From Escherichia phage Skure, in sequence record MK672798.1: 59,463 nucleotides of DNA, one strand, 5' to 3'. This document shows, piece after piece, positions 1 to 34,563 of this stretch. The position numbers and the translations under genes are program-made. The first letter of the stretch is position 1, and the number at the start of each line of letters is the position of its first letter. A model generated the notes under the pieces. That model was not told the origin of the DNA, searched no databases, and saw nothing but the letters and a program-made list of their open reading frames with translations.

Positions 1-2
1 GT

Positions 3-92
3 AAACTGAGGGTTAAGGAAATCATACGCTATGAAGCTGAAAATGTTTCGCTTGATTTTGTAGGATCAAGCAATTATATTCAGCCTAAATAG
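3..92 (+). CDS. 3' end of an ORF entering from the window edge; possibly the tail of the o-spanin ORF that leaves the window at 59463 if the record is a permuted or circularised genome
   Basis: Frame open from position 3 to TAG at 90-92; joining 59463 to 1 keeps the o-spanin reading frame. Confidence 0.2.
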   Translation, partial: KLRVKEIIRYEAENVSLDFVGSSNYIQPK

Positions 93-112
93 CAATAAGA
101 AAGGGGGCTTCC

Positions 113-670: not shown

Positions 671-2207
671 TAACATGCCGCGAGTCGTCTGGAAACCACA
701 TCCAGGTTCACAGACACTCGCTCTATCCTGCCCCGCTGATATTATCCTATACCACGGAACTCGCGGTCCTGGAAAAACGGACTGCCAGCTTATGCGTTTC
801 CGTAAGAACGTTGGCGTAGGGTACGGTAAATTTTGGAAGGGTATTATATTCGACCGTGAATATAAAAACCTTGATGACCTTGTAACTAAATCCCAGCGTT
901 GGTTTCCTGAATTTAAAGACGGGGCTAAATTCCTTAGCTCTAAGTCTGATTATAAATGGGTTTGGCCTACAGGTGAAGAGCTACTGTTCCGCGTTGCTTG
1001 TAAAGAAAAGGATTACTGGTCTTATCACGGTCACGAATACCCATTTATCGGATGGAACGAATTAACAAAATATCCGGACGGGCGCTTGTTTGAAGCTATG
1101 ATGTCCTGTAACCGTTCATCTTTCTTACCAGAAGATAACCCAATTATTAATCCAGATGGTACGGTCACATATTTACCGGATATCCCTCTTGAAGTGTTTG
1201 CTACCAGTAACCCGTTCGGTGCGGGGCATAACTGGGTTAAGAAACGCTTCATTGACGCTGCACCGATGGGTAAAATACTCAGGAAGACTACGCGAGTGTT
1301 TAACCCGAGGACGCAGAAAGACGAAGATGTGGTTACGACGCAATGCCATATCTTTGGTTCGTACCGTGAAAACAAAAACCTAAGTCCAAAATATATTGCA
1401 GAACTTATGTCTATCACAGACCCGAACAAGCGTGCTGCATGGTTGGGCGGGAGCTGGGATATTACATCCGGTGGTATGTTCGATGATCTGTGGCGTAGCA
1501 CTGTTCACAAAGTACGTCCATTTCCGATTCCAGCGAGTTGGAAGATTACACGTTCTTTCGACTGGGGTTCTTCAAAACCGTTCTCTGTCGGTTGGTGGGC
1601 TATTAGTGATGGTTCGGATGTTGTGCATGAAGATGGCACTACATTCTCCACGGTCCGCGGTGACCTGTTTAGGATTAACGAATGGTATGGGACCAACGGT
1701 AAAACAAACGAAGGTCTACATTTGCTGGACTCAGAAATTGCAAGCGGTATACTGGAGCGGGAATTGGCCTGGGGTATACACGATCGTGTAGTTCCTGGTC
1801 CTGCGGATAACTCCATTTGGGATCTGGAGAACAATAACTCCACCGCTGCAACAATGGCGAAGAAAATTCGTCTTAACGGGAAGTTATACGACGGTATACA
1901 TTGGAAGCGCAGTGATAAGTCTGCTGGGTCACGTAAACGGGGCTGGCAGAAAATGCGTGAGTTCCTTAAAGCTGCACTGCGGCAAGATGCGAACGGTAAA
2001 CCTTTGCCCGGTCCGCGCGAGAATCCAGCAATGTACATTTTTGATAACTGCAACTATTTCTTTGAGCTGGTTCCAAGTCTGCCTCGCGATGAAGTGGATC
2101 AGGACGACGTTGATACGGAATGTGAAGACCATATGGGTGATGAAGTTCGTTATATGGTTCTGGATCAAGCTGTTTATACAGGTGTTGGCAAAACTATCGG
2201 TATTTAA
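648..2207 (+). CDS. terminase large subunit
   Basis: 519 aa; Walker A-like HGTRGPGKTD near N-terminus; first gene of morphogenesis operon; AAGAG RBS-like sequence upstream. Confidence 0.8.
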   Translation: MELNRQPDNMPRVVWKPHPGSQTLALSCPADIILYHGTRGPGKTDCQLMRFRKNVGVGYGKFWKGIIFDREYKNLDDLVTKSQRWFPEFKDGAKFLSSKSDYKWVWPTGEELLFRVACKEKDYWSYHGHEYPFIGWNELTKYPDGRLFEAMMSCNRSSFLPEDNPIINPDGTVTYLPDIPLEVFATSNPFGAGHNWVKKRFIDAAPMGKILRKTTRVFNPRTQKDEDVVTTQCHIFGSYRENKNLSPKYIAELMSITDPNKRAAWLGGSWDITSGGMFDDLWRSTVHKVRPFPIPASWKITRSFDWGSSKPFSVGWWAISDGSDVVHEDGTTFSTVRGDLFRINEWYGTNGKTNEGLHLLDSEIASGILERELAWGIHDRVVPGPADNSIWDLENNNSTAATMAKKIRLNGKLYDGIHWKRSDKSAGSRKRGWQKMREFLKAALRQDANGKPLPGPRENPAMYIFDNCNYFFELVPSLPRDEVDQDDVDTECEDHMGDEVRYMVLDQAVYTGVGKTIGI

Positions 2208-2218
2208 CTGGAGGGTAT

Positions 2219-3715
2219 ATGGGTATTGATGCAACTCACCCGCTATATGACAAGTGGAAGGACGCATGGGTTAAGTGCAACGACTGCTATGAGGGTGAAG
2301 ATAAAATTAAGGAAGAAGGTGTTAAATATCTACCACCTTTAGCTTCCATGATTATTGATGGGATGAATAATCCTAATGATTTGGGCTTTCAACGTTGGCT
2401 CGCTTATCGTCTGCGTGCCAACTTCCCTGACGATTATTCAAGTGCGGTTACAAACAATTTAGGTCTGCTGCACCAGAAGCCCCCTACAATCCAGCTTCCA
2501 CCTGAAATGGAATACATGCGGGAGCTGTGTACTGCGGACGGTGAAGACATTATTGCTCTGCTACGTCGCATCAATGAAATGCAGTTAAAAAATGGGCGTT
2601 TGGGGCTGCTGCTGGACTTGCCTAAAGGTGAGGATGTAAATAACAGACCTTATATTAGTGTTTATGATGCTTTATCCATTATCAACTGGGATGATGGTAA
2701 AGATGAATTGGGTAATATCAACTTGAACATGGTTGTTCTGGATGAAAGCGGCCCTGTACGTGTCAATCAGTTTGACTGGAAAGAAGAGAAGCGTTATCGC
2801 GTTCTACAATTAGGTCCAATGGACACAGATGAAGTTGCAGGTGGGGCGGTCTACTCCCAACATCTGTTTATTAACAATACCAATTATGATGAAGGGCAAA
2901 TGATTGCTCCTTATTATAAAGGTAATACGCTGGATGAAATTCCTTTCCAGTTTGTCAATACAACAGATATTACCCCAGCACCGGAAGCGCCGCCATTGTT
3001 GGGTCTTGCTAACATTTGTCTAAGCATGTACCGAAGTGACGCGGATTACCGCCAATGCTTGCATATGCAGGGTCAGGATACTTTAGTTGTTGTTGGTGGT
3101 TCCATGGAAAATGGAGATAAAGCCCCTCAGCGTATTGGTCCTGGTGCAGTCATTAACGTTTCTCAGGGAGGTGACGCTAAATATGTAGGTGTTAGCGGTG
3201 ACGGTTTGTCCGAGCAACGTCTCGCACTGGCAGCGGATAAGCAGGAAGCCCAAATTAAAGCCGGGCAAATGGTAAACAATACCAAGAGTACGCAGGAATC
3301 AGGCGAAGCTATGAAAACGCGTATTGCTGCGCGTACAGCTAGTTTGATTCGAATTGCGTATACTGGTGCGGCTGGTTTGGAGAACTTGCTGAAGGTTTGC
3401 GCTAAGTGGATGGGTGCTGATCCCGAGAAAGTTGTGGTCAAGCCTAATCTTGAATTTACCAAGAGCATGTTTAACGGTCAGGACTTTGTTCAAATTATTA
3501 CTGCACGCAACCTTAAGGCTCCGATTAGCTTGCAGTCTATTCATGGCTGGCTTGTTGATCAGGGCTTAACCACACTAAGCTTTGAAGAAGAAATGGCAAT
3601 TCTTGAAGAAGAGCTTAAGAAGTGGCCTCTGCCCGATGATGCTAAAGCTGATTTAAACGCAGAGCAGCAAGTAAGCAAAGATCCTAAGGAAGACGACGCT
3701 TCCGATAAAGAATAG
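2219..3715 (+). CDS. portal protein
   Basis: 498 aa ORF directly after terminase; GGAGGG RBS; acidic C-terminus. Confidence 0.7.
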   Translation: MGIDATHPLYDKWKDAWVKCNDCYEGEDKIKEEGVKYLPPLASMIIDGMNNPNDLGFQRWLAYRLRANFPDDYSSAVTNNLGLLHQKPPTIQLPPEMEYMRELCTADGEDIIALLRRINEMQLKNGRLGLLLDLPKGEDVNNRPYISVYDALSIINWDDGKDELGNINLNMVVLDESGPVRVNQFDWKEEKRYRVLQLGPMDTDEVAGGAVYSQHLFINNTNYDEGQMIAPYYKGNTLDEIPFQFVNTTDITPAPEAPPLLGLANICLSMYRSDADYRQCLHMQGQDTLVVVGGSMENGDKAPQRIGPGAVINVSQGGDAKYVGVSGDGLSEQRLALAADKQEAQIKAGQMVNNTKSTQESGEAMKTRIAARTASLIRIAYTGAAGLENLLKVCAKWMGADPEKVVVKPNLEFTKSMFNGQDFVQIITARNLKAPISLQSIHGWLVDQGLTTLSFEEEMAILEEELKKWPLPDDAKADLNAEQQVSKDPKEDDASDKE

Positions 3716-3810
3716 TTGCAACTTCCAAGTTGATTGGTTTATATTAACGAACACGGGGCTGGGACGGCTCAGCTCCAAAAACGTCACACGGGTGACAACG
3801 GAGATAAGAA

Positions 3811-4683
3811 ATGAAAAAGAGTTCTGTAGCTATTAGTGTTGGTATGGCTTTAATTAATCCACGCGCTCGCGGTGAAGGTGATGTGGAACTGGAATACGAA
3901 TATGCATCTGCGGAAGAGATCCCGGCAGAGTTTGCAACTCTTTACGCAGAGCAGGGCGGTAAATACGTTCTTGCAAAAGTTAAAGGTGTAGCCCCTGCTG
4001 ATAGCGTTCGTCGTCTGGAAAGTGCATTGGCAAAAGAACGTAACGACCATCGTCAGGTGAAGCAACAGATTAGCGCACTTGGGCGTCCGGTTGAAGAAGT
4101 CCTTGCGGACCTTGATCGTATCCCACAACTGGAAGCTGCCGCTAACGGTAAAGGTACTCCGGAAGACATCGAAAAGATGGTTAAAGCTCGTCTTGCTCCG
4201 CTCGAGCGTCAATTGCAAACTGTAGCAGCTGAACGCGATTCCGTTAAGCAGGAAATTGAAGGCTACCGCACTCGCGAAACTAAAGCGAAAATTAAAGACG
4301 CAGTTATTGCCGCTGCATCCGGTGCTAAGCTGCGTCCGTCTGCTATCGAAGATGCGGTGACTTATGCACAGTTGCAAATGACCGTCGACGAGAACGGCAA
4401 TGTGGTTACGAAAGATGGGGCGGGTGTAACTCCATACCTAACCCCAGCGGATTGGCTTAACGAGATCCTCCCGAAACGTCCTCACTGGGTTGAGGGTTCT
4501 GCTGGTGGCGGTGCATCTGGTCCGGGCGCTGGCGGTCATCACGGTGAAGACCCATACAGTCACGACGGTTGGAACATCTCTAAGCAGATGAATCTCTGGA
4601 AAACTAATCAATCTTTAGCTAAACGCTTAGCTGAAAAGAATGGCGTAGATCCGCTGAAGCCTGTACGTCCTGCTAAGAAATAA
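3811..4683 (+). CDS. capsid scaffolding protein (putative)
   Basis: 290 aa, charged helical protein between portal and major capsid gene; GGAG RBS. Confidence 0.5.
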   Translation: MKKSSVAISVGMALINPRARGEGDVELEYEYASAEEIPAEFATLYAEQGGKYVLAKVKGVAPADSVRRLESALAKERNDHRQVKQQISALGRPVEEVLADLDRIPQLEAAANGKGTPEDIEKMVKARLAPLERQLQTVAAERDSVKQEIEGYRTRETKAKIKDAVIAAASGAKLRPSAIEDAVTYAQLQMTVDENGNVVTKDGAGVTPYLTPADWLNEILPKRPHWVEGSAGGGASGPGAGGHHGEDPYSHDGWNISKQMNLWKTNQSLAKRLAEKNGVDPLKPVRPAKK

Positions 4684-4697
4684 GTTGACATCCCGAC

Positions 4698-4730
4698 GTC
4701 CCTGATGTTAAGTTTCAACACATCAGGGAC
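4698..4730 (+). promoter_or_regulatory. perfect 11-bp stem-loop between scaffold and major capsid genes
   Basis: GTCCCTGATGT-(11 nt loop)-ACATCAGGGAC; no following U-tract; overlaps a TTGACA hexamer at 4685-4690. Confidence 0.45.
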
Positions 4731-4805
4731 ACGGGTTCCTAAACAGCCTTCCACGGGGAAAGGCTACCAACAGTAAACAAATCAATCCTTTTCCTGGAGA
4801 CAAGT

Positions 4806-5867
4806 ATGTCTAAATCTAAAATTATTCTGCCATTTGGTCGTGGCGAAACTGACCTGACTCGTTTGACGGATGTCATTGTCCCTGAGATCTTCACTGGTTA
4901 TGTGCAGACGCAGACCGCTGAACTTTCTGCCCTGATCCAATCCGGTGCGGTTGTGATGGACGAGCGTTTATCAGCTAACCTTGCTGGTGCAGGTCTGACT
5001 TTTAACGAGCCGTTCTATAACGACTTGAAAGATGAAGACGAAGATATCGCGGTTGATAAAGGTAATCCGTCAAAACCGTCTAATATCACTACTGGATCTG
5101 AAGTTCAGGTTCGTATGAGTCGTTCAAAATCCTGGGGTTCTGCGGATCTGGTATCAGCTTTGATTGGTAACGACCCAATGACCGCTATCGGTAACCGCGT
5201 GTCTGCGTGGTGGGTCCGCCGTCTGCAAGCTGCATACATCGCAACCTGGAAAGGTGTATTTGCTAATGCGAAGAAATCTCATAACGACGATTTGACTTTC
5301 GACATCTCTGGTTCTTCTTTTGTAAATAACCAGACCAACTTTACCGCGTCTAACTTCATCAACGCAACTGCAACGATGGGTGATGCTGCCCGCGGTCTGA
5401 CTATGATTATGGTACACTCTACCGTTCGTAACCGTATGCGTCAGTTGAACCTGATCGACTTCATTCCAGATGCTCGCGGCGAAACTCAGTTTGAGTATTA
5501 TCAGGGTCTGCGTATTATTGAAGACGACTCCATGCCACACGATCCGTCTACTGGTGTGTTTGAAAGCTGGCTGTTCGGCCCGGGCGCAACTGCAATGGGT
5601 GCTGGGTCACCGAAAGTTCCGACCGCTGTGGTGCGTGACGAAGCTGCTAACCAAGGCGCTGGTGAAGAAGTTCTTCACAACCGTGTTGAATGGATTCTGC
5701 ATCCAGTTGGGCATGCTTGGGCTGCTGCTCAAACTGCTAAAGGTGGTCCGTCTAACGCTGCTACCACTAACAACCTGGCCCATGAAGATTCCTGGCGTCG
5801 TGCGTTCCCTGAGCGCAAGCAGCTTAAAGTTGCACGCCTGATCACTCGTGAGTATCAGGGTTCCTAA
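4806..5867 (+). CDS. major capsid protein
   Basis: 353 aa; position after scaffold; followed by strong intrinsic terminator typical of a highly expressed capsid gene. Confidence 0.7.
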   Translation: MSKSKIILPFGRGETDLTRLTDVIVPEIFTGYVQTQTAELSALIQSGAVVMDERLSANLAGAGLTFNEPFYNDLKDEDEDIAVDKGNPSKPSNITTGSEVQVRMSRSKSWGSADLVSALIGNDPMTAIGNRVSAWWVRRLQAAYIATWKGVFANAKKSHNDDLTFDISGSSFVNNQTNFTASNFINATATMGDAARGLTMIMVHSTVRNRMRQLNLIDFIPDARGETQFEYYQGLRIIEDDSMPHDPSTGVFESWLFGPGATAMGAGSPKVPTAVVRDEAANQGAGEEVLHNRVEWILHPVGHAWAAAQTAKGGPSNAATTNNLAHEDSWRRAFPERKQLKVARLITREYQGS

Positions 5868-5898
5868 GGCTTCACTCAACGCTGCGCTGTAGTATTTT

Positions 5899-5925
5899 GG
5901 GGACATCTTATGTCCCCTCTTTTTT
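5899..5925 (+). terminator. rho-independent terminator after major capsid gene
   Basis: GGGGACAT-ctt-ATGTCCCC followed by TCTTTTTT. Confidence 0.6.
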
Positions 5926-5937
5926 AGGAGAACAACC

Positions 5938-6261
5938 ATGCGTTATCAACGTTATGAACGACATGACTTGATGGAAAAATCGTTGCAGGTGGAGCCAATT
6001 TCGATTACTCTCGATCCTGCTACGATTGACACCACAACTTCAGAAGTAAAAACGGTTACTGTTAAAATAAACTTTGTCCCAGGCGGAACTACAAACAAAG
6101 CGTATAGCGCGTCAGTTGACGGTTCCTCTGCTACAATTAAAGACAACGGGGACGGTACAATTACTGTGACCACAACCGAAAGCAGCGGTACTTCAAACTT
6201 GACAGTAACGTCCAAGGCAAAGGATAGTGTTACTGGTACATGTGTTATTAATGTGACCTAA
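5938..6261 (+). CDS. Ig-like (Big_2-type) domain protein, possible head decoration protein
   Basis: 107 aa, Thr/Ser/Val-rich beta-strand pattern resembling bacterial Ig-like group 2 domains; AGGAG RBS. Confidence 0.45.
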   Translation: MRYQRYERHDLMEKSLQVEPISITLDPATIDTTTSEVKTVTVKINFVPGGTTNKAYSASVDGSSATIKDNGDGTITVTTTESSGTSNLTVTSKAKDSVTGTCVINVT

Positions 6262-6277
6262 AAATAAGGATTAAACA

Positions 6278-6931
6278 ATGAAGACATTAATTGAAGCATT
6301 GTTAGAACTTGATCCGGAAAACCCGAATCATTGGACCAGCGATGGCTTACCTAAAGTAGACGCTCTGCGTTTCGCTACCGCTAACCCGTCTTTAACCCGC
6401 GACGATATTACGACTGCTGCTCCTCTATTTACCCGCGACAACCGCGTGCTGGAAGAGCCCGAGCCTGTGGAACCCGTTAAATCTGCTGATCCAGTTTTAC
6501 ATGAAGCAGTTAAACAGGAGAAAGCTCATGAAGAACAAAAGAAAGTCGCGGTTGCAACGATGCAAATCGAAGTTAAGATTAGCGAAGCACTGCGTGCTCT
6601 TCTGGAGCCGGAAAAAATCGGTGACGCTACCAGCTTAACCGATGAAGAACTGAAAGCGAAGCGCGAAAAGCTTAGCAATGTGGTTAAAGAGATTGCCCAC
6701 ACTAAGCACGCGTTGGAGCTTGCTATCGCAGACGTTCAAGCGGATCTGGATAAGATTATCGTTGAGCAGGAGCGTCGTCGTCCTAAGTCCGGTCTTACTG
6801 CAACTCAGATGTATCTTGAAGCGCAGAAAAAACGTAAACCGGAAGACATGCTTTCTGACCATCGCTTCCAGAACCCTATTGACGATCCTGTCGCCCGTAT
6901 GGTTGCACGTAATATGATGCGTCGAGGTTAA
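6278..6931 (+). CDS. hypothetical head-associated protein
   Basis: 217 aa ORF with RBS, in head module. Confidence 0.4.
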   Translation: MKTLIEALLELDPENPNHWTSDGLPKVDALRFATANPSLTRDDITTAAPLFTRDNRVLEEPEPVEPVKSADPVLHEAVKQEKAHEEQKKVAVATMQIEVKISEALRALLEPEKIGDATSLTDEELKAKREKLSNVVKEIAHTKHALELAIADVQADLDKIIVEQERRRPKSGLTATQMYLEAQKKRKPEDMLSDHRFQNPIDDPVARMVARNMMRRG

Positions 6932-6984
6932 CCATGGAAATGAGCCATAGACAATATGTGTTGTGGCTCCTCCGACGTAATAGA

Positions 6985-7015
6985 AAACGGCGTCAAGAAG
7001 ACGCCGTTTCTGTTC
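6985..7015 (+). terminator. candidate intrinsic terminator / attenuator
   Basis: AAACGGCGTC-aagaa-GACGCCGTTT then CTGTTCC; weak U-tract. Confidence 0.35.
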
Positions 7016-7069
7016 CTGAAGAAGAGCTCCCGTCACTTATCCCTACAACCATCGCAATGAGGAAGAAAG

Positions 7070-7576
7070 ATGGAGATTCCACTGATAGTTGAAGATGGTA
7101 CTGGTGTACCGGACGCCAACAGTTATGTCACCATTGAACAAGTCCGCATGTATGCCGCAATGCGAGGTATTGTACTTCCAAGTGAAGACGAAGATCTAAA
7201 GACAAAGATCTTTGACGCTATGGATTTTGTGGAAGGGTACAGCCAACGCTTTAAAGGTTATAAAATTGACCCACAGCAACCGCTAAATTGGCCACGCTAC
7301 GGGGTGTTTGTGGATGGGTTCGAGCTACCCCAAAGCCCCTTACCAAAGGCGCTTATAAACGCTGTTTGCCAGCTTACAGCGGACTCAGCTACTGGCGGTC
7401 CTCTTAATGGGAAAACTACCGCATATGCGGTCAAAAGAACTAAAGTAGAAGGTCTTGAGATTGAATATGCAACTGGTAGCACAGCACAGTCAGGTCCAGC
7501 AAAAACATACGATAAAGCTATGACGTTTTTATCACCTTTGCTGGGTTATCAAATGGGTAACAGATTAATACGGTGA
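7070..7576 (+). CDS. head-tail connector/adaptor protein (putative)
   Basis: 168 aa; position between head and tail genes; AGGAAG RBS. Confidence 0.4.
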   Translation: MEIPLIVEDGTGVPDANSYVTIEQVRMYAAMRGIVLPSEDEDLKTKIFDAMDFVEGYSQRFKGYKIDPQQPLNWPRYGVFVDGFELPQSPLPKALINAVCQLTADSATGGPLNGKTTAYAVKRTKVEGLEIEYATGSTAQSGPAKTYDKAMTFLSPLLGYQMGNRLIR

Positions 7577-7579
7577 TTT

Positions 7580-7960
7580 ATGAGCTTTCCTTATGAGCAG
7601 TTAGTTGAAGCTGCAAAGCAAATGATCAACGACGCTGGCGTGAACTGTACCCTTGTGGTCATGGAAGAAGGAGAAGGTCAAGATGAGTGGGACGATCCTA
7701 GTGTTGAAAAACGCTACCCATTTATCGGAGCTTTCCTTTCTCCGAAGGAAAAAATGATCGGTGGGAGTCTTGTTGCTGCTGGCGAATTGAAAGTCTTAAC
7801 CTATCCAATGACTCCACCATTGACACGAGATAAAGCAATGACTGCACGCATTGAGCGTATGTCTCCTGATGGTGAGTTGGAAGTATGGACAATTAACGAG
7901 TTCGTTGATACAAGACCTGCTAATGTTTCTGTTCTTTATACTTTCAAGGTGACGCGATAA
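7580..7960 (+). CDS. head-tail joining protein (putative)
   Basis: 126 aa, tightly packed in connector gene series. Confidence 0.35.
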   Translation: MSFPYEQLVEAAKQMINDAGVNCTLVVMEEGEGQDEWDDPSVEKRYPFIGAFLSPKEKMIGGSLVAAGELKVLTYPMTPPLTRDKAMTARIERMSPDGELEVWTINEFVDTRPANVSVLYTFKVTR

Positions 7961-8367
7961 TGGGATTCGGGGCGGATATACGGCGTGCAAGTCAAAAGGT
8001 GCTTGTCCAGACTGGGGAGCAAGCCAAAAAGGTTGTTGTCAAGTTCACGGAGAATGTAATTCAGGATACTCCTGTTAAGACCGGACGTACAAAAGGCGGT
8101 TGGCGTTCATCCATTGGTGCACCATATGCGACGGAAACAATCCGCCTCGATCCTACTGGGGAGTTAGCTAAAGCGGAAGCTAGAGTTGTTGTTCGACAGC
8201 TACCAGATAATAAAGACTGGACTTTCTATTTTAGCAATTTGACTCCCTATGCTTCAAAACTTGAATATCTTGGATGGTCGCAGCAAGCGCCAAATGGTAT
8301 GGTGCGTATTAACGTTGCGAAGCTGCCAATGCTAATACGTCAAGCTATTGTAGAAGGAAAACTATAA
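7960..8367 (+). CDS. neck protein, HK97 gp10-like (putative)
   Basis: 135 aa; start overlaps previous stop; position in neck series. Confidence 0.4.
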   Translation: MGFGADIRRASQKVLVQTGEQAKKVVVKFTENVIQDTPVKTGRTKGGWRSSIGAPYATETIRLDPTGELAKAEARVVVRQLPDNKDWTFYFSNLTPYASKLEYLGWSQQAPNGMVRINVAKLPMLIRQAIVEGKL

Positions 8368-8816
8368 TGCTGGGATATGATTATATTAATGACGCATTTA
8401 ATACAATGCTTCGTGAAGCGGTTGGACCGGATATTGGTATAGCTTGGAAGAATAAGAAGTTTACACCTAAAGCCAACCAGATGTGGTTAAAGGCAATCAA
8501 TGCGCCCGCTTCAACTTATGCAGCAACTCTAGGTGATAACGGTCTGAATGAAATTCCAGGCTTCTATCAAATTACAGTATATAGTCCTTTAAACACCGGA
8601 ACGTCTAAACAGAATCAAATCTTGGATTCTATTCGGAAAAAGTTTAAACTGGGCTTGCGTATCCCGTGCCCGGATGACCACACGTTACGGATTGTCAGTT
8701 TAGACTTTTCGCAGGGTGGACAAACTTCGCTGAACGATTTTACCAAAGGCGGGGTTGAAGATAACTGGGACGTTAACTTTATCACAATCTATTGGTCGGC
8801 TCGTGAGCCGAGGTAA
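8367..8816 (+). CDS. tail terminator/tail completion protein (putative)
   Basis: 149 aa immediately upstream of major tail protein gene. Confidence 0.35.
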   Translation: MLGYDYINDAFNTMLREAVGPDIGIAWKNKKFTPKANQMWLKAINAPASTYAATLGDNGLNEIPGFYQITVYSPLNTGTSKQNQILDSIRKKFKLGLRIPCPDDHTLRIVSLDFSQGGQTSLNDFTKGGVEDNWDVNFITIYWSAREPR

Positions 8817-8830
8817 GAGAGGAACTAAAT

Positions 8831-9754
8831 ATGGCTACAGGTTCACGTTATTCGTGCTACTACGTCAAAGAAGATGTAAGTAACACTACACCAGCTAGTG
8901 CGAAGTTTACTCCGTTCCGTGTAACCAGCTCCGGTCTGGACATCAATATTGCAACGCTGGAATCTGAAGAACTGCGTGACGATGCTGAAACCGCATACTT
9001 CCGTCTTGGTGCTCGTAGCGTTGAAGGTACTGTAACTGGCGAAATGTCCTTTGGTACATTTGACGATCTTATTGCTGCTGCACTTCGTGGGGAATGGCAA
9101 GACAACGTCCTCAAAGGCGGCATTGTGCGTCAATCGTTTACTTTTGTAGACTATAACGCAGATCTCCCGTCAGGTAAATATACAATTTATCGCGGATGTG
9201 AAGTTAACAGCATGACGTTCTCACTTTCTGCGGAAAACATGACCACAGTGGAGTTTGGCATTGTTGGACGTTCAATGGAAATTGCGGAATCTCTTCCGTC
9301 CGGTGCAACCATTAAAGACCGCACCACTACATCTCCTATGGACGGCTTCTCCGGTCGCTTGCTGGAAAACGGCGAAGAAATCAGTGTTATTACGGAAATC
9401 GGTCTTACTGTTGAAAACGATATTGCCCCGCGCTTTGTTGTTGGATCGAAGTTCTCCATCGAACCGTCTGCTGGTCGTCGTGCTGTAACTGGTACGGCTA
9501 ACGTATACTTCCTGGATAACAAGCTGCGTATGAAGTATCTGGATGAAGTGGAAACTTCAATCAAGTTTGACCTGATTGATCCTACTAATCCGGAACAAAA
9601 ATACACAGTTGAAATTCCGCGCGTGAAGTTTACCGAAGCTCCGCGTCCTATTGACGGCGAAGGTGATATCATGCTTAATATGGGCTATCGCGGTTTGCTG
9701 GACCCAACAACCGCAAGTTCCATCAAAATTACCCGCGTTTTAGCGGCAGCATAA
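8831..9754 (+). CDS. major tail protein
   Basis: 307 aa, upstream of the chaperone pair and tape measure gene. Confidence 0.6.
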   Translation: MATGSRYSCYYVKEDVSNTTPASAKFTPFRVTSSGLDINIATLESEELRDDAETAYFRLGARSVEGTVTGEMSFGTFDDLIAAALRGEWQDNVLKGGIVRQSFTFVDYNADLPSGKYTIYRGCEVNSMTFSLSAENMTTVEFGIVGRSMEIAESLPSGATIKDRTTTSPMDGFSGRLLENGEEISVITEIGLTVENDIAPRFVVGSKFSIEPSAGRRAVTGTANVYFLDNKLRMKYLDEVETSIKFDLIDPTNPEQKYTVEIPRVKFTEAPRPIDGEGDIMLNMGYRGLLDPTTASSIKITRVLAAA

Positions 9755-9769
9755 TATCAAGGATAAGTA

Positions 9770-10177
9770 ATGACCGACACCAAAAAAGCCAAACAAGCTG
9801 TATCTAAAAGCTTTCGTGATTTCAAAACTGTAAGTCGTGCTAACGACCCAGCCAACACCAAACCATTAGATGTGGTTATTCCTGGTGTTGGTAATACAGG
9901 TGAAAAGCTGTATATCCGTAGCCGTTATTGCACAGAATATCGCGAAGCTGAACTGAAAGCGCAACGTCAATTGTTAGCACTCATGCAGGGTAACGACGGT
10001 GAAGTAACGGACAGCATGAAGGAAGATATCCTTACTCGCTCGTTAGCTAACCTTGTTGCAGGTTGGACGTTTGAAGAGCCGCCGACTATTGATAATGTGT
10101 TTGAGTTCTTGACAGAGAACCCAACGGTTCGTGAAGACATTAACGTATTTGCCGCTAAAGATAGTAATTTTTTCTAA
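9770..10177 (+). CDS. tail assembly chaperone (lambda G-like)
   Basis: 135 aa between major tail and tape measure; ends ...AAT TTT TTC TAA with a slippery heptamer. Confidence 0.6.
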   Translation: MTDTKKAKQAVSKSFRDFKTVSRANDPANTKPLDVVIPGVGNTGEKLYIRSRYCTEYREAELKAQRQLLALMQGNDGEVTDSMKEDILTRSLANLVAGWTFEEPPTIDNVFEFLTENPTVREDINVFAAKDSNFF

Positions 10178-10575
10178 AAGCGCGCAGACAGTTAATTGAT
10201 AAGAAGATCCTCCAATGGGAACTAAATAGCAAAGTCCCCGGCGGGGGATCTTCTTTATTATCGCAACTACAAAAGGTTGAAGAACAGTCTGGTAAGACGC
10301 CTCAAAAACTTAAAGACTATCGGGAAAAGGAAATACCTGTTTGTTTTGAGTACCTTTCTAACTTGTTTGATGATTTTTACACAGGAGGTGATTTTAGTTA
10401 TACGGAGTTGCATAACTATCAGACAACTATGCGATTAAGCTTACAGCCGTACGAATGCGAAATACTGCGACAGTTATGGCTTGAAAAGCGCGTGTCTGAA
10501 GCTGAACAAAATGCTAAACTCATGGAAAGTCAAATGCAAAATCAGAATAAAGGTAGAAGGAAAAGGAGAAGATAA
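9770..10575 (+). CDS. tail assembly chaperone -1 frameshift product (lambda GT-like), shift at T TTT TTC 10168-10174
   Basis: The -1 frame is open from 10168 to TAA at 10573-10575 without needing a start codon; the extension ends exactly where the tape measure ATG begins (TAATG). Confidence 0.5.
10168..10174 (+). promoter_or_regulatory. slippery heptamer T TTT TTC for -1 programmed ribosomal frameshift
   Basis: X XXY YYZ heptamer in frame at the last two sense codons of the chaperone gene; -1 frame open downstream to 10575. Confidence 0.5.
10201..10258 (+). promoter_or_regulatory. nested stem-loop downstream of the slippery site
   Basis: Outer stem AAGAAGATCC/GGATCTTCTT enclosing TCCCC-ggc-GGGGA; lies within the frameshift extension ORF. 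Confidence 0.35.
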
Positions 10576-13500
10576 TGGCTGAAACTGCTTCGCTAGTAAT
10601 CAGAGTTGACGCGAAAGGGATTAGCACAGCGGACTCCATGCTGCGTAACCTTGCGCGTACAGGTGACACAGCGGAGCGTTCCGCTCAACGTGTCACTTCA
10701 AGCTATAAAACATTATCCAACACGTCAAACGAGCTTGCAACTGTCACAGGTCGTTTGGATGCTGCAATTGTAGGTATGATTAGCGTTGACACAATTAACC
10801 GTGTTATTTCGCTATCAGACTCCTGGACTATCCTTACTAACAAACTTGAACTAGCTCGTATGGGTAACGAAACCGTTGCGGATTCTCAGCAACGTGTGTT
10901 TGATATTGCGCAGCGTTCCCGTACTAGCTTAGAAGCAACTGCAACTCTGTATTCCCGTCTTCAGCGTGCAATGAAGAATACTGGCATGACGGGGTTGGAG
11001 CTTGGGCGCATCACAGAAACTATCAACAAAGCGATGATTGTTTCTGGTGCAACTTCCCACGAAGCAAGTGCTGCTCTTATTCAGTTTTCGCAGGCTATGG
11101 CTTCCGGCGTTCTTCGCGGTGACGAATTTAGATCGGTTGCAGAACAGGCTCCGCGTTTAACTCAAATTATGTCCGACGCGTTAGGCGTTACCATTGGACA
11201 ATTGCGTGAAATGGCTTACAGCGGCAAGTTAACCGCCGATGTGGTTATCAAATCATTGTCTGGTGCTGCGGATACAATTGATAAAGAATTCAGCCGCACT
11301 ATGCCAACGTTCAACCAACAATGGACGATTGCAACAAACAACCTGACTAAATTTATGGGTGAATCCCAAAAGACTCAAGGTGCGGTCGCTGCATTGGGTC
11401 AGACGTTTGTTGCATTATCTAAAAACTTAGGAACGGTTGTAACGGTTGGTTCAGCTTTAGCCACAGTGATTACCGCCCGTATCATTACGGCAATGCTTGC
11501 TAAGACTAAAGCGTCTATAGCTGCTGCAAAAGCATCACAGATGGAGGCTGCACAGACTGCGGCAACTACTGCGGTTATGCAAAGCTCCATTGGCGTTACT
11601 GCACAAAAGGCGGCTGCGGATCGTGCTGCGTCGCTTGCTGCGTTACAGGTTGCTCGCGGATCATTAGCGGTTGCTAAGGGCACGGCAGCGGAAGCAGGTG
11701 CACGTCTTGCACTTATTAACGCTACCCGTGCACACTCTGCGGCAATTGTGGCGGACGTACAAGCGCGACAGGCGCTTAATGCTGCGCTTAACGCAACCGT
11801 ACCAGCGGCAAGCCGTGCTGCTACAGCAATGAGCGTGCTGCGCGGTGCTATGGGGTTAATTGGCGGTCCGGTTGGTGTAGCAATGCTGGCAGCGGGCGCT
11901 ATTTACTCGTATAAAGCATCGCTGGAAGCTGGTCGTGCTGAAAATAATCAGTTCGCAGATAGCGTTGACAGTGTACGCGATAAATTGATGCAAATGACGG
12001 AAGCTCAGCTGGCAGCTAACGCGGTCAAAGCTAGAGCAATCCTTCCGGAACTTGAAGAGCAACTGAAGCGGGAGCAGAACGCTCTAAAATCTGCAACAGA
12101 AACACAGAAGTTCTATGAAGCACAATTAAAACGCCGTGCCGCGTCCGGTCGTGATACAGCTAGTGCTGAGAAGAACTTACAAATTGCAACGGATAACGTC
12201 AAGCTTGCTGCCGAGCGTGCTGAAGAAGCTCAACGCCGTTACAACAATGTCTTAGAAATGACAAGCCCTGCTATCGAGAAGATAATTCCGTTAGCTCGTC
12301 AGCTTGCTGCTGATATGAAGGCAGTTCTTAACATCAAATCCGGTCCACTTATTGACGAGAAAGTCCTTGACCGTTTTAAAGGTCAGCTAGGTGATGTCAA
12401 CCGTGAGATTGATGTTAACACGGTTAAGGGTGCTGGCAATGCTCGCCAAGCTGCAATCCTTAGTGGACTGTATCAGACGCTGGGCAAGGATGCAGACACC
12501 TATGGAAGTCTAATTCGCAAAGTAGCTATGGGGCAGGACGTTAGCTCAGAGGCAACAAGCGAATCCGCTAAAGAGCTTGTTAAATATGCTCAAGATTTAG
12601 CCCAAGCTCTTGGCAAAAACTACGATCTTGAAGAAGCAGAGAGAAACCGAACTAAAGCGACAAAAGACGGTATTAAAGCAGAACAACAGAACGCCAAAGT
12701 TATTGACGATTTACGCAATAAGCTTAACGAAGTAACCACAGGGGTTAAGGAAAACGCCAAAGCGAAAGCGCAAGCGGTAGCACTTAATAAGCTCAATGCG
12801 TCTGCAACGGCTGCGGAAAAAGCAGAAGTCGTTAGTCTTGCTGCTGCAATTTACGATGCAGAAGAAGCTCAAAAGAAACTGGACGAGCGTAAGAAGAATC
12901 GTAAAGCTGCCGAAGACTTGTTAGGGGAAGGTAGAACAGACTACGCTAAAATTGAATACGAAATGCAAGAAAAGATCATGAAGCTTCATAGGGATCAAGA
13001 AGCAGATGACCTTGAGCATTACAAACTGTATGAGGACGCTAAGACTCAAGTATTGGCGCAAGCTAACCTTCAAAGGGAAAACCTGAATAAAGTTCTTATG
13101 AACAGGATGATATCCTTTTCTCAGGACTCCTTAGGTATTATAATGGATGGTCTGTCACAGGCTGTAAGCCAGCAGAACTTCTTTTATAAAGCTATGTTTG
13201 CAGCACAGAAAGCAATGCAAATCCCGTCAATCCTTGCCAACACGGAAACGGCAGCATCCGCGGCGCTTGCATGGGGTACACAGCAAGGCGGTGCTACAAT
13301 GGGCGCAACAATGGCAGCTATAGTGAAAACTATGGGTTATGCCTCGGCTGCTACTGTGGGTGGCTTAGCAATTGCTGGTATGGCTCACGACGGTATTGAT
13401 AACGTTCCGCGTGAAGGTACGTGGCTGCTGGATAAAGGGGAGCGTGTTCTTAATGCTCCGTCAAATGATAAGCTAAACAGATTTCTGGACAGTCAATCCT

Positions 13501-29851: not shown

Positions 29852-30373
29852 TTACAGGCTATAATTTACGTGACATTTCGAAGTTTCTTCGATGGTGCAT
29901 TCTACAAGTTGAACACCATGCTCGTCAAGCAGTTGCGGCCCAATTACTTCAACCATGTATGCAGCTAAGTTTTCCGCAGTTGGGTTGAACGGTAGAGCTA
30001 CCAGTGAATCAACGAAATGTGAGTGCTCTTCTTCTGTAATATAACCTTCACTTTCATCCGCTAAAACATCACGAAGACCGATAAGTAAGTGATCTTTTTC
30101 CCAATGCAGGAACTTATGATCCCAGTTATCTTCCAGCCACTGGCAAAGCGTAGTTTTAACCACACTGAAGTCGATAACACGACCAACACTGTCCAGGCCT
30201 CCTTCTAGCGTCAGTTTACCGCACGTAATCTTTTTAACATCCGTGCGACCTTTCGGGGCAACCTTAAAGTGAAACTTATAGTTATGTCCGTGAAGATGTC
30301 GACATTTGCTTTCATGTCCTACAACACGGTGCCCAGCGCAAATTTCATGTGAACGGATCACTGTATAGCTCAT
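29852..30373 (-). CDS. queD: 6-carboxy-5,6,7,8-tetrahydropterin synthase
   Basis: 173 aa; CxxxHGH zinc motif (CRHLHGHNY); AGGAGA RBS. Confidence 0.85.
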   Translation of the reverse strand: MSYTVIRSHEICAGHRVVGHESKCRHLHGHNYKFHFKVAPKGRTDVKKITCGKLTLEGGLDSVGRVIDFSVVKTTLCQWLEDNWDHKFLHWEKDHLLIGLRDVLADESEGYITEEEHSHFVDSLVALPFNPTAENLAAYMVEVIGPQLLDEHGVQLVECTIEETSKCHVNYSL

Positions 30374-30374
30374 T

Positions 30375-30698
30375 TTATTCTCCTAACTCTGCTTTAACCG
30401 CTGCTTCGATATCTTCAAGGGCTTTAAGTTCATGAGTATAGTAACTCATATCATCTGGTTCAGTCGACTCTTCGTGCATGGTTTCTAATGCTTGACGCCA
30501 TATAGCTATGTGACCTTTAATCATACATGCAAGCGAACTATGACCTTTGTAAACTGCTTTGTCCACTTGCATCTGTGGGTTGAATTGCACAATAGCATCT
30601 TCAACAAGATCAATCAGATCATATGCTTGTTGAGGGACTGGGTTTCCAAATGCTTTATGAGCTATACCCATTCTTGCTAAATTACTTATCCTATTCAT
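30375..30698 (-). CDS. hypothetical protein inside deazaguanine cluster
   Basis: 107 aa, AAGGAG RBS, no recognisable motif. Confidence 0.45.
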   Translation of the reverse strand: MNRISNLARMGIAHKAFGNPVPQQAYDLIDLVEDAIVQFNPQMQVDKAVYKGHSSLACMIKGHIAIWRQALETMHEESTEPDDMSYYTHELKALEDIEAAVKAELGE

Positions 30699-31264
30699 TT
30701 CGATACTCCTTTCGATTGTTCAATTTCTAACGCACGCTGTGCGGACGCAATAATGTCTTTTAAGTCTTCTACCAGACTTTTATGCCCGCGCTCACCGGGT
30801 TGCAATGCTTTTTTGATAAGGTGTTGCAGAGCTGGGTTCGTTGTTTCCCAGGCGGTAAGAACATCATACACATCTACAACAATTGAAGCAACATGCCCGT
30901 CAATATCTTTACCGCGGATAAGGCGCTGGTATTTGGTCAGACGGTTATCTTCAGGATAGCTCTGGTAACGCGCTTCTGGAACCGTCATTGCAATTTCCAT
31001 CACTTCTTTAAACTTGTGCTCGGTTATTGGGTCTTTGCTGGTCATTTGTTGATTAATTGGCTCTTCAATGATGTAACGCCAAGCAGTCACATCAAATTGT
31101 GTGGTCATTGGGATTGGCGAATATGACCATATCCAACCAGCTCCGCGATGGTTTCTTAAAACGTTACCATTTCTTAGTTTCACTTCAAAATGGTCATTCT
31201 GAAGATAGACGGGCATCCCTTTGCCGTCGTGTTTGTGCCAAATTTTATCCAGATTATCTTTCAT
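30695..31264 (-). CDS. hypothetical protein inside deazaguanine cluster
   Basis: Start placed at internal ATG (MKDNLDK) one nt after upstream stop; about 189 aa; no recognisable motif. Confidence 0.45.
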   Translation of the reverse strand: MKDNLDKIWHKHDGKGMPVYLQNDHFEVKLRNGNVLRNHRGAGWIWSYSPIPMTTQFDVTAWRYIIEEPINQQMTSKDPITEHKFKEVMEIAMTVPEARYQSYPEDNRLTKYQRLIRGKDIDGHVASIVVDVYDVLTAWETTNPALQHLIKKALQPGERGHKSLVEDLKDIIASAQRALEIEQSKGVSK

Positions 31265-31265
31265 T

Positions 31266-31745
31266 TTATGCTCTCGCTGTACGTGAATGAACTTCGTAAA
31301 CAACCCAAAGGATAGCTGATGCTGTGAACTTACTTAAGCTCATTGCTACCATCGATCCCGGATTTACAATACCAATAATACTTAAGAATACAATGGAGTC
31401 AATTGGTACTGCGACCAAAGAGCTGATAAATACTCGTTGATGGAAAGGCTTCTTGGTGACCGTGTATACCACATAGTCAGCAAACTCGCTAAGTGCAAAT
31501 GACGCAACGGATGCAACTACAACCGCAGGATCCCCGAACACCCAGCTAAGAATGCAACCGACAATCATTGCAGGGATAACGCCTTTGCCAGCGTTACGCT
31601 GTGCGTAGTCACGCAGGACGAAGATAATACCTACGAAGAAAGCCATCATGGGTACTACGCCAAGCGGCGTGTTAAGTATTGGAAGGTAGGAAAAGCCCAG
31701 GTTTACGAACGTAATTGCAGCCAGGTAAGCAACGATAAATTTCAT
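31266..31745 (-). CDS. integral membrane protein, putative queuosine-precursor (preQ0/preQ1) transporter of the YhhQ/COG1738 type
   Basis: 159 aa, about 5 TM helices; sits between queC and queD; assigned by context, not by motif. Confidence 0.4.
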   Translation of the reverse strand: MKFIVAYLAAITFVNLGFSYLPILNTPLGVVPMMAFFVGIIFVLRDYAQRNAGKGVIPAMIVGCILSWVFGDPAVVVASVASFALSEFADYVVYTVTKKPFHQRVFISSLVAVPIDSIVFLSIIGIVNPGSMVAMSLSKFTASAILWVVYEVHSRTARA

Positions 31746-32589: not shown

Positions 32590-32787
32590 TTAGAAACCTT
32601 TAAGGCTAATATTAAGGTTAACGACTACTTGTTCAACTACATCTTCACAGGTCACCTGACGCTTGTGAATTTCAAGTTCCGAATATATTTTCTTTGAAGC
32701 TGCGCGACATAGGGCGTCATTCAATTCGTCTTGTAGACGTTGAATCTTGTGCATAAGCACTACAGTTTCTTCATTCATTTTCCACAC
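32590..32787 (-). CDS. hypothetical small protein inside deazaguanine cluster
   Basis: 65 aa between queE and queC. Confidence 0.35.
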   Translation of the reverse strand: MWKMNEETVVLMHKIQRLQDELNDALCRAASKKIYSELEIHKRQVTCEDVVEQVVVNLNISLKGF

Positions 32788-32983
32788 CTTTAATATAACA
32801 AGGGTTGATTGTTACATTTGACATTACAATTGGATGATTACGTGCTCCAATTGTACTAACGTGATTAATATCTAATTCTACATGCACACCCTGCATAGTA
32901 GCATGGGCAATTGCAGAATTAAGTTTTTCTACCAGCTCAGTAATCATTTCCTGATGCTGTTTTGCTTCTTCTAAAGTGATCAT
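32771..32983 (-). CDS. hypothetical small protein inside deazaguanine cluster
   Basis: 70 aa; stop overlaps next start. Confidence 0.35.
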   Translation of the reverse strand: MITLEEAKQHQEMITELVEKLNSAIAHATMQGVHVELDINHVSTIGARNHPIVMSNVTINPCYIKGVENE

Positions 32984-33699: not shown

Positions 33700-33735
33700 T
33701 CTAGTGAAAAAGAAAGCGCCTCATTGGGCGCTTTC
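33700..33735 (-). terminator. rho-independent terminator (- strand) downstream of the Ala-rich protein gene
   Basis: Plus-strand GAAAGCGCC-tcattg-GGCGCTTTC; on - strand followed by TTTTTCAC. Confidence 0.5.
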
Positions 33736-33759
33736 ATTATAACGTGATATGTTTTGATA

Positions 33760-34563
33760 TTACAAGCCGTTCAGGGCTTCCGGTACTGGCATAGGTACGC
33801 GACCAGTCACACCATTAAACTTCTTCCAACGTGCATACTGAGTTTTAACAGTATCTTCGTTCAGACCGTGACGACCTGCCAGATTCAGAACATAAGAGAT
33901 CGGAGCAGGCTGACCCAGCGTAGCGCTAATCTGGTCCATCAGAGCCCAGGCACGACCGCAGGAAGTTTCCGGTTGCGGACGACGAACACCATTCTGTTCA
34001 GGCATACGGTTCGCTTCTTTCGCTTTTTCACGTTCAGCTTTTTCGCGGGCTTTTTCAGCAGCCTTTTCAGCCTGTTTAGCAGCGCGGATCTTGTCTTTGA
34101 AGCCTTTGATAGACGAATCCAGTTCGTCGACCATGCTCTGAGCAGCAGTTACTGCACCGGACAGATCTTCACCTTTGGATTTTTTAACAACTGCTTTCAG
34201 ATCTTTCAGAGCATTCTTTAAATGCTTCAGCTGTTCGGAACCCTTAGATTCTGCTTCCGTAATCTGTTCAACAGTGCTTTCATCGGTAATACCGGATAAA
34301 GCAAACTTCACGGTTTCAACTGCCTGGGAAAGAGCGGTAAATTTATTTTCCGCTTCAGTACGAATTTCAGCTTGTTTCTTTTCAGCGGCAGCTTTTTTCT
34401 CTGCTTCTTTTTTCTCTTTTGCTACGCGTGCAGCTTCAGCGGCAGCGGCTTTTTTAGCTTCTGCGTCGTTAGCAGTAGCTTCTTTCTTTGCAGGCTTAGC
34501 AGATTTTGCAGCGGCAGCAGCGGCTGCGGCAGCAGCGGCTTTCTTATCTTCAATATTACTCAT
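33760..34563 (-). CDS. Ala/Lys/Glu-rich protein with poly-Ala tract and conserved C-terminal domain (function unknown)
   Basis: Start at ATG 34563 (GGAG RBS) rather than GTG 34572; 12-residue poly-Ala; C-terminus ...QYARWKKFNG paralogous to the protein at 50611-51225. Confidence 0.5.
   Translation of the reverse strand: MSNIEDKKAAAAAAAAAAAKSAKPAKKEATANDAEAKKAAAAEAARVAKEKKEAEKKAAAEKKQAEIRTEAENKFTALSQAVETVKFALSGITDESTVEQITEAESKGSEQLKHLKNALKDLKAVVKKSKGEDLSGAVTAAQSMVDELDSSIKGFKDKIRAAKQAEKAAEKAREKAEREKAKEANRMPEQNGVRRPQPETSCGRAWALMDQISATLGQPAPISYVLNLAGRHGLNEDTVKTQYARWKKFNGVTGRVPMPVPEALNGL

Follow-up and report, generated by a model that had tools for sequence, protein, structure and literature searches.

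We analyzed two small genes of Escherichia phage Skure (sequence record MK672798.1; the window is the whole stretch of 59,463 nucleotides, numbered from its first letter) that lie side by side between queD and a putative preQ0 transporter gene within the gene cluster for 7-deazaguanine modification. The locus with both open reading frames (ORFs; 1,051 bases) is 100% identical to that of Escherichia phage CAjan (KP064094/NC_028776; Seuratvirus, Queuovirinae), and the CAjan gene names, gp39 and gp40, are used here. Both are genuine genes of modular build, and their modules are neither confined to phages with the modification gene dpdA nor co-conserved with it; we tentatively read the two as accessory genes of the early replication and nucleotide-metabolism module. 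The locus comprises the following features:

30375..30698, minus strand: CAjan gp39, a small all-helical protein of 107 amino acids (aa) with an ATG start, stop codon included, annotated as hypothetical (YP_009196833)
30695..31264, minus strand: CAjan gp40, 189 aa, with its ATG at 31264, stop codon included, annotated as hypothetical (YP_009196834)
30695..30698, minus strand: ATGA overlap of the gp40 stop and the gp39 start, from the sequence and the ORF coordinates
30706..30711, minus strand: Shine-Dalgarno-like AAGGAG in the sequence of the gp40 3' end, 7 nucleotides (nt) 5' of the gp39 ATG
29852..30373, minus strand: queD, the downstream neighbor, recognized by a Pfam PTPS match (E 2e-20) and its annotation, with its AGGAG ribosome-binding site in the gp39 3' end
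31266..31745, minus strand: yhhQ-like gene for a putative preQ0 transporter, the upstream neighbor, recognized by its annotation and by sub-threshold Vut_1 and TIGR00697 matches

The initial annotation of this DNA had described ORFs of 107 aa and roughly 189 aa between queD and the transporter gene as translationally coupled into the segment. The two ORFs are indeed present there, on the minus strand, and the tight coupling is borne out by the ATGA overlap, by gaps of 1 nt between the yhhQ stop and the gp40 ATG and between the gp39 stop and the queD ATG, and by Shine-Dalgarno-like sequences of their own before all three starts (GAGAG for gp40, AAGGAG for gp39 and AGGAG for queD). The program-made ORF list prolongs gp40 to a TTG at 31303 (202 aa), which is not its real start, because all homologs begin with MKDNL at the ATG. 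The ratio of nonsynonymous to synonymous substitution rates (dN/dS) is 0.13 for gp39 (CAjan against the PD328 homolog, 72% identical; 107 codons, no indels) and 0.11-0.21 for gp40 (against the OddieOddie and Seurat homologs). Both are real genes under purifying selection.

The genes around them are all transcribed from the minus strand, in the order queE, gp44, gp43, queC, yhhQ-like gene, gp40, gp39, queD, folE, gp36, dpdA, gp34, sliding clamp and DNA polymerase. Promoter- and terminator-like sites within the cluster are no commoner than in shuffled sequence. Upstream of queE, at 33712-33765 on the minus strand, we identified a strong terminator-like hairpin (9-bp stem with six G-C pairs, followed by a T run) directly after a promoter-like site matching 10 of 12 positions, and this pair probably marks the start of the transcription unit of the whole cluster. 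As it is the only convincing terminator-plus-promoter pair, and internal sites stand at chance level, co-transcription of gp39 and gp40 with the que genes is likely. The base composition of the region gives no sign of a foreign island. The CAjan cluster has been described as comprising 12 genes, six of them, gp39 and gp40 included, without assigned function, and the published CAjan mutants are deletions of folE, queC, dpdA and yhhQ only (Kot et al. 2020, PMC7544227).

The initial annotation could place no motif in either protein, and this stands: neither gp39 nor gp40 matched any Pfam, NCBIfam or PADLOC family (gp40 had no Pfam match at an E of up to 1; the scans of the two proteins returned mere noise, for instance DUF3740 and a Type I specificity subunit at E 0.02). 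Nor could either be related to any of the known Que, Dpd or tailoring enzymes (QueF, Gat-QueC, DpdL/M/N, ArcS and others) in Pfam, NCBIfam, PADLOC or the PDB sequences, or, for gp40, by fold. Both ORFs are direct members of PHROG families without known function (23361 and 2452/35158/13223/18443/17613 for gp40, 24659 for gp39; E 2e-103 to 4e-12).

The architecture of gp40 was derived from an alignment of 56 relatives and an AlphaFold2 model with a mean predicted local distance difference test score (pLDDT) of 66, and it divides the protein into three parts:

31067..31264, minus strand: gp40 N-module, aa 1-66, a small beta module with the pattern W.HDGKG.P ... W.W ... WRYI, three strands in the model at a pLDDT of about 70-76
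30944..31066, minus strand: gp40 linker, aa 67-107, hypervariable and predicted to be disordered, with a pLDDT below 50 at residues 69-81 and 92-104
30698..30943, minus strand: gp40 C-module, aa 108-189, a beta hairpin followed by three helices at a pLDDT of about 78-85, a candidate divergent DUF3310/gp1.7-like domain

Over its full length, gp40 matches phrog_23361 (E 2e-103), and the linker is unalignable between CAjan/OddieOddie and Seurat-type homologs. The C-module matches PHROGs 2452, 35158, 13223, 18443 and 17613; no P-loop or Pfam match backs the label "ATPase" of the last. In the 56-member alignment, the C-module has 16 invariant residues: K111, Y112, D131, Y133, D134, W139, H148, K151, K152, G157, R159, H161, K162, D170, S174 and R177. 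Homologous clusters number 897 in a large protein collection, and in 106 of the 121 closest members at least 40 other residues precede a C-terminal C-module, whereas it stands essentially alone in ten and is N-terminal in five. Segments resembling the N-module are weakly seen in unrelated C-module carriers (relatives P0104, E 8e-4, and P0111, E 4e-3), and in relative P0097 such a segment is placed after the C-module.

The nearest likeness of the N-module is DUF551, a domain of the same size and beta character, to two proteins of which the gp40 model gave weak matches in BFVD, the database of predicted viral structures (E 0.09 and 0.17; probability 0.82-0.85). DUF551 carries a W...P...W...W pattern resembling that of the N-module; neither gp40 nor the 56 family members matched its Pfam hidden Markov model (HMM). 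Separately, in XQU46385 of phage TPWB-08 (positions 3986-4414 of stretch L020), a gp39 C-module is joined to a C-terminal segment with the end ...QWRPLP, which we take to resemble the ends of DUF551 domains, the kind of module suspected at the gp40 N-terminus.

The initial annotation presupposed that the two genes are conserved with the modification system, and the distribution of the gp40 C-module does not bear this out. By tblastn, full-length gp40 is limited to 33 phage records, that is, Seuratvirus and close relatives, and its C-module is present in 703 (368 of Salmonella, 191 of Escherichia, 24 of Klebsiella, 22 of Vibrio, and others). CAjan-type DpdA, searched at E <= 1e-5, a threshold at which divergent DpdA subfamilies could be missed, is present in 236 records, and their host spectrum is very different (56 of Mycobacterium, 40 of Escherichia, 32 of Pseudomonas, only three of Salmonella). 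From the counts per host genus it follows that CAjan-type DpdA cannot be carried by at least about four-fifths of the C-module records, nor the C-module by at least about 40% of the DpdA records; by organism counts, most DpdA phages of Mycobacterium, Rhizobium and Cellulophaga appear to be without it. Co-conservation with dpdA is thus lacking in this co-occurrence comparison.

The genomic contexts of the C-module are equally varied. Within Queuovirinae, gp40 directly adjoins queD in Seurat and OddieOddie, and in the Nonagvirus phages JenP2, PD328, ChristophMerian and BRET an unrelated protein of about 250 aa is encoded between queE and gat-queC; this protein ends in the gp40 C-module in JenP2, PD328 and ChristophMerian, and BRET_34 occupies the same position. 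In the cluster of Klebsiella phage K9PH25C2, the C-module is absent and only the N-terminal half of the Nonagvirus protein is left: LOCUS61 (112 aa; positions 4749-5087 of stretch L007) matches only the N-terminal half of JenP2 AKA60989 (252 aa; positions 5497-6255 of stretch L005), with which it shares a YNT.VTPPSN motif, so that the gp40-type C-terminal module has been lost from it. Outside this subfamily, the C-module forms a stand-alone 76-aa protein behind a metallophosphoesterase-type exonuclease in Salmonella phage Jersey and lies within a 124-aa protein (gp10) in Edwardsiella phage PEi21, and no que or dpdA gene occurs in the portions of these genomes that were read (35 of 43 kb and 27 of 43 kb, respectively). 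Its neighbors elsewhere are of three kinds: SSB, dUTPase, ParB_N and a PAPS-reductase-like gene; PRPP synthetase (Prs) and NAMPT; and SSB alone. In Aeromonas phage LAh_7, the C-module is the N-terminus of a 486-aa protein ending in a BRCT domain. What these contexts have in common is a place in the region for early replication and nucleotide metabolism and not a link to deazaguanine synthesis.

The AlphaFold2 model of gp39 is confident (mean pLDDT 87) and consists of four helices arranged as two helical hairpins, which correspond to two modules:

30564..30698, minus strand: gp39 N-module, aa 1-45, two helices with the pattern MN.LS.LARMGIAHKAFGNPIPQQAYDLI..., found apart from the C-module in P0124, P0127, P0128, P0131, BRET_32 and K4PH164 LOCUS57
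30378..30560, minus strand: gp39 C-module, aa 47-107, a helical hairpin with a pLDDT above 95, assigned to phrog_24659 by a PHROG match

The match to phrog_24659 covers residues 43-107 against profile positions 1-63 of 63 (E 2.1e-37), and near-invariant residues of the C-module are G52, H53, L56, A57, M59, H63, H89 and E90. Close relatives of the whole protein are rare, with only four among 5.8 billion clusters, and an exhaustive HMMER search yielded 101 representatives, in which the C-module makes up a stand-alone protein of 62-70 aa or is part of a fusion. The partners in these fusions are many and unrelated, among them, in single cases (P0168 and P0201 among the relatives), a MazG pyrophosphohydrolase, a ParB helix-turn-helix (HTH) and a Tad2-like (anti-Thoeris) domain; in P0129 and P0130, the C-module occurs in tandem. 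Two further modules join the N- and C-modules in various orders, X (..LMGY.ENG....I..FQDDAT...) and Y (RY.V.K......L...R....DWPEY), whose carriers include BRET_32 (positions 4001-4330 of stretch L021), K4PH164 LOCUS57 (3755-4339 of L022), ChristophMerian bas19_0030 (4773-5177 of L014), P0124, P0127, P0139 and P0144. The N-module is joined to X in the absence of the C-module in P0124, P0127 and BRET_32, the C-module to X in P0139 and to Y in ChristophMerian bas19_0030 and K9PH25C2 LOCUS64, and K4PH164 LOCUS57 combines Y, N and X. With N+C, N+X, Y+C, Y+N+X, C+X, C+C and C alone all represented, the modules N, C, X and Y are a freely recombining set.

A profile search of the gp39 family against PDB sequences found no related structure, the best match being a Helicobacter helical protein (E 0.3). 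An apparent internal duplication of gp39, in which the N- and C-modules matched each other (i-E 1e-3), is not trustworthy, because the profile held misaligned N-modules. The giant repeat proteins (P0126 and others) picked up by the gp39 profile look like spurious matches as well; the P0126 segment, the only one inspected, is a surface-protein repeat.

By tblastn, gp39 modules are found in 20 phage records representing 16 phages. Five Queuovirinae have a module-bearing ORF in the slot directly upstream of queD, and its content changes from phage to phage: N+C in CAjan and PD328 (72% identical), N+X in BRET, and Y+C in ChristophMerian and K9PH25C2. Seurat, OddieOddie and JenP2 have nothing in this slot, so gp39, like the gp40 C-module, is not conserved with the modification system. 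In Burkholderia phage BcepGomr, the gp39 C-module begins gp30, directly after dpdA, and in K4PH164 gp39-type modules lie elsewhere in the replication module. Nine phages, Sashavirus/Nonanavirus-like and others, carry gp39 modules with no que genes nearby (five were inspected), and the stretches read of Sasha and PJ16, which carry the modules, show no que or dpdA genes.

Two observations concern the layout of such clusters more generally. BcepGomr, an unclassified phage, has a Queuovirinae gene order (helicase, queE, queC, queD, folE, a small ORF, dpdA, gp30, gp29, clamp, a small ORF and polB, in positions 1-12000 of stretch L006), with a MazG-like gene after polB. Seurat gp42 (6789-7043 of stretch L004) and OddieOddie gp44 (4779-5033 of stretch L012) are an extra ORF of 84 aa between the gp44 homolog and queE that CAjan is without, and this site is another variable slot in the cluster. 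Insertion of hypothetical genes at differing places in deazaguanine clusters has been described previously (Olsen et al. 2023, PMC10484667).

To place the gp40 C-module among known folds, the model was compared by Foldseek with the PDB, where no fold matched (best E 0.05), and with BFVD, where the significant matches are the gp40 family itself. The best BFVD matches outside the family include three or four models of T7-like "nucleotide kinases" (Klebsiella phage Henu1, E 0.037, probability 0.92; P560, E 0.11; ctqEG8, E 0.15), and the C-module was therefore tested against DUF3310. This domain (PF11753) is that of lactococcal SaV (PMC8306868), and residues 122-184 of T7 gp1.7, which phosphorylates dTMP and dGMP (PMC11897194; PMC9339283), match it at E 4.5e-23. 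A sequence bridge is offered by phrog_25460, the same profile region of which is matched by T7 gp1.7 (E 1.1e-3) and the DUF3310 protein Sasha gp24 (E 8.9e-4) and also by the divergent gp40C-family proteins PEi21 gp10 (E 3.1e-4) and JenP2 AKA60989 (E 0.032). A profile-profile comparison by hhalign between the gp40 C-module and a 122-sequence DUF3310 alignment pairs the expected motif, QHLIKKALQPGERGHK..DL with GNILKYRLRAGKK..DL. The motifs follow the same order in both families:

Aromatic pair: H-Y in DUF3310/gp1.7, K-Y in the gp40 C-module
Acidic helix: IEAIEVI in DUF3310/gp1.7, VDVYDVL in the gp40 C-module
Basic helix and loop: GNILKYRLRAGKK in DUF3310/gp1.7, NPALQHLIKKALQPGERGHK in the gp40 C-module
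Last helix (DL..A): DLAKA in DUF3310/gp1.7, DLKDIIASA in the gp40 C-module

The likeness extends to the setting: DUF3310 (the T7 gp1.7 C-domain and SaV), too, is restricted to phages, measures about 60-80 aa and usually follows, at the C-terminal end, an N-terminal part that varies, and it is encoded among genes for early functions and nucleotide metabolism. There are differences, however: in gp40 the first helix is preceded by a beta hairpin and, in Seuratvirus, by an insertion of 8 residues; gp40 has K-K where DUF3310 has K-Y, and invariant His residues of its own (H148 and H161), and the Cys-rich region of gp1.7 does not correspond to its N-terminal part. No canonical DUF3310 ORF is encoded in the window, which is almost the whole genome, and this is compatible with gp40 filling the role. 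Taken together, we infer that the gp40 C-module is probably, with the balance tipping slightly in favor of this yet unproven assignment, a divergent branch of the DUF3310 superfamily. Kinase activity of gp40, a further step that leans on the analogy with gp1.7, is conceivable though doubtful.

On these grounds, gp39 and gp40 may be accessory genes of the early replication and nucleotide-metabolism module rather than dedicated components of 7-deazaguanine synthesis, a reading that we prefer while holding it tentatively. The que genes would then just happen to be embedded in this module, with gp39 and gp40 co-transcribed with them and with dpdA. The gp40 C-module would be a nucleotide-binding or phosphotransfer domain, the invariant K-Y, D.YD, H..KK and G.RGHK residues of which would form the active site, and gp40 would help to convert (deoxy)nucleoside monophosphates into diphosphates for phage DNA synthesis, at most indirectly raising the guanine-nucleotide pool used by FolE. 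The modules of gp39 would fill the variable slot upstream of queD, and gp39 itself, given its conserved His/His/His-Glu residues and promiscuous fusions, could be a metal-assisted oligomerization or partner-binding adaptor and not an enzyme, although this must be regarded as rather uncertain.

Several observations weigh against this interpretation. Queuovirinae of two genera keep a protein with the gp40 C-module inside the cluster, and in six phages, the unclassified BcepGomr among them, gp39-type modules adjoin queD or dpdA. As to the superfamily assignment, none of the 56 gp40-family members matched PF11753 even at E < 10, in a search whose positive controls behaved as expected (81.5 bits for T7 gp1.7; PF11753 in 120 of 120 matches obtained when Sasha gp24 and the T7 gp1.7 C-domain served as seeds). 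The phrog_25460 bridge is matched by only two divergent members of the gp40 family, and the 25 families listed (out of 45) for the 56 aligned members do not include it. The hhalign score is not significant (E 0.22, or 0.097 with divergent members added; probability below 1%) and is reached by six of 100 column shuffles, both profiles being low in effective sequence number (about 2.3-2.5). HMM cross-searches between the gp40 family and the DUF3310 alignment found nothing; direct BLASTP of gp40 against T7 gp1.7 and a sequence-profile search of the gp40 family against PDB sequences gave no match either, and no DUF3310 structure exists in the PDB for comparison. To our knowledge, the part of gp1.7 that carries the kinase activity has not been mapped so far. 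The initial annotation had named clear homology to unrelated well-characterized phage proteins, combined with a lack of co-conservation with dpdA, as what would refute its proposal; the lack of co-conservation is now evident, and homology to a characterized phage protein, T7 gp1.7, is probable and not clear.

A serious rival, especially for gp39, is that one or both proteins are host-takeover or anti-defense effectors, or are themselves targets sensed by abortive-infection systems, with the variable N-terminal parts tracking host partners; we consider this unlikely overall but worth weighing in full. The model for it is again found among DUF3310 proteins, SaV (toxic, triggering AbiV) and T7 gp1.7 (activating Avs5), both of which have documented defense-sensing roles (PMC8306868; PMC11897194). 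The comparison of CAjan with Seurat could be read in this sense: identity is 100% for DpdA, 99.6% for QueE, 98% for YhhQ, 97% for QueC, 90% for FolE and 78.5% for QueD, and it drops to 57% for gp40, the C-module of which is nearly unchanged, with the divergence falling in the N-module and linker. However, the stretch that runs from queD into mid-gp40 (within 29852-31264), gp39 slot included, is a recombination hot spot in an operon that is nearly identical elsewhere, and the low whole-gene dN/dS (0.11-0.21) together with the divergence of queD makes the pattern look like recombinational mosaicism and not positive selection. The heavy shuffling and patchy presence of the gp39-type modules, the location of the C-module within moron-like clusters of small genes in Nonanavirus/Sashavirus, and the fusions to a Tad2-like anti-Thoeris domain, MazG and a ParB HTH likewise suit an effector, but each of these fusions is a single protein, and no PADLOC or anti-defense family was matched. 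Moreover, the charged residues of the gp40 C-module are strictly conserved from Vibrio to Salmonella hosts, which fits an enzyme or ligand site better than a host-specific inhibitor.

The proposal of the initial annotation, that these genes are accessory to DNA modification through base tailoring, precursor channeling or protection of host tRNA, corresponds to a second alternative in which gp39 and/or gp40 are factors specific to the 7-deazaguanine system, feeding or channeling precursors (GTP, preQ0) to the Que enzymes and DpdA, blocking host QueF or Tgt in order to save preQ0 for DNA, or tailoring the base. Part of the evidence agrees with it: the tight coupling and co-transcription with yhhQ and queD, the presence of full-length gp40 in the 33 Seuratvirus records, the recurrence of the same C-module at the end of a different Nonagvirus protein between queE and gat-queC, and the gp39 C- or N-modules, which in five Queuovirinae lie immediately upstream of queD and in BcepGomr immediately behind dpdA. 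Of the phages with gp39 modules, about 40% carry dpdA, compared with 0.5% of all phage records, although this enrichment stems largely from one related group (Queuovirinae and BcepGomr, with the same gene order). What does not hold is conservation with the system, as Seurat, OddieOddie and JenP2 have no gp39 and the K9PH25C2 cluster has no gp40 C-module, both kinds of module are common in phages that have neither que nor dpdA genes, and most DpdA phages outside Queuovirinae are without them. Genetically, folE, queC and dpdA explain the modification (PMC7544227), and no tailoring step is needed, because CAjan DNA carries only dPreQ0, other known 7-deazaguanines being below detection (PMC6884629). 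Because of this patchiness, the wide occurrence of the modules elsewhere and the single modified base, a dedicated deazaguanine role is disfavored, base tailoring included, and we regard it as improbable.

Slimmer still is the prospect that gp40 and the gp39, X and Y modules make up a regulatory layer that is dedicated to the deazaguanine cluster, is rapidly reshuffled and recurs beside queD or dpdA in Seuratvirus, Nonagvirus, related Klebsiella phages and BcepGomr, the copies in dpdA-less phages being re-used relatives; gp39-type proteins might then bind and block host QueF or Tgt, keeping preQ0 for DpdA, and gp40 might be a gp1.7-like guanine-nucleotide kinase supplying GTP to FolE. Very unlikely, too, is a gp40 C-module that is unrelated to DUF3310 and binds DNA or the replisome as a replication or repair accessory, with the N-module as a second binding domain, since against the LAh_7 fusion to a BRCT-containing protein, the weak winged-helix fusions in P0067 and P0090, the neighboring SSB, exonuclease, ParB_N and helicase/polymerase modules and the many invariant Lys, Arg and His residues stand winged-helix matches below the Pfam thresholds and the invariant acidic D131 and D134 with the K-Y pair, more typical of a catalytic or nucleotide site.

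A few neighboring genes of the cluster deserve comment in their own right. The putative preQ0 transporter (31266-31745) has only 159 aa and scores below the curated cut-offs (25.7 against 27.2 bits for Vut_1; 21.6 against 50.95 bits for TIGR00697); its gene seems limited to Seuratvirus among the clusters inspected, and deletion of yhhQ leaves the modification unaltered (PMC7544227). CAjan QueD (173 aa; 29852-30373) spans the 121-position PTPS profile from end to end, with residues 5-171 against positions 2-118, and therefore holds roughly 50 extra residues as insertions. The product of gp44 (32771-32983, 70 aa) is labeled "radical SAM domain-containing protein" after phrog_26258; it has no Pfam match and falls far short of the length that a radical SAM fold takes, and the label is probably a carried-over annotation.

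To conclude, the genes analyzed here had already been flagged as hypothetical, and papers on Queuovirinae clusters mention hypothetical genes without analyzing gp39 or gp40 (PMC7544227; PMC10484667); new in this work are their modular anatomy, their distribution outside dpdA phages, with the evidence against co-conservation with dpdA, and the lead to DUF3310. The minimal CAjan pathway stays folE-queD-queE-queC-dpdA, and the small genes interspersed in such clusters should not be assumed to be part of it. If the DUF3310 link is true, roughly 900 protein clusters and about 700 sequenced phages, among them the common Jersey-like Salmonella phages used in biocontrol, would gain a first functional lead for a domain that is currently without a Pfam family or annotation. 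The superfamily of gp1.7-type kinases and SaV would then be much larger than recognized, which matters because its members are sensed by abortive-infection systems (AbiV, Avs5).

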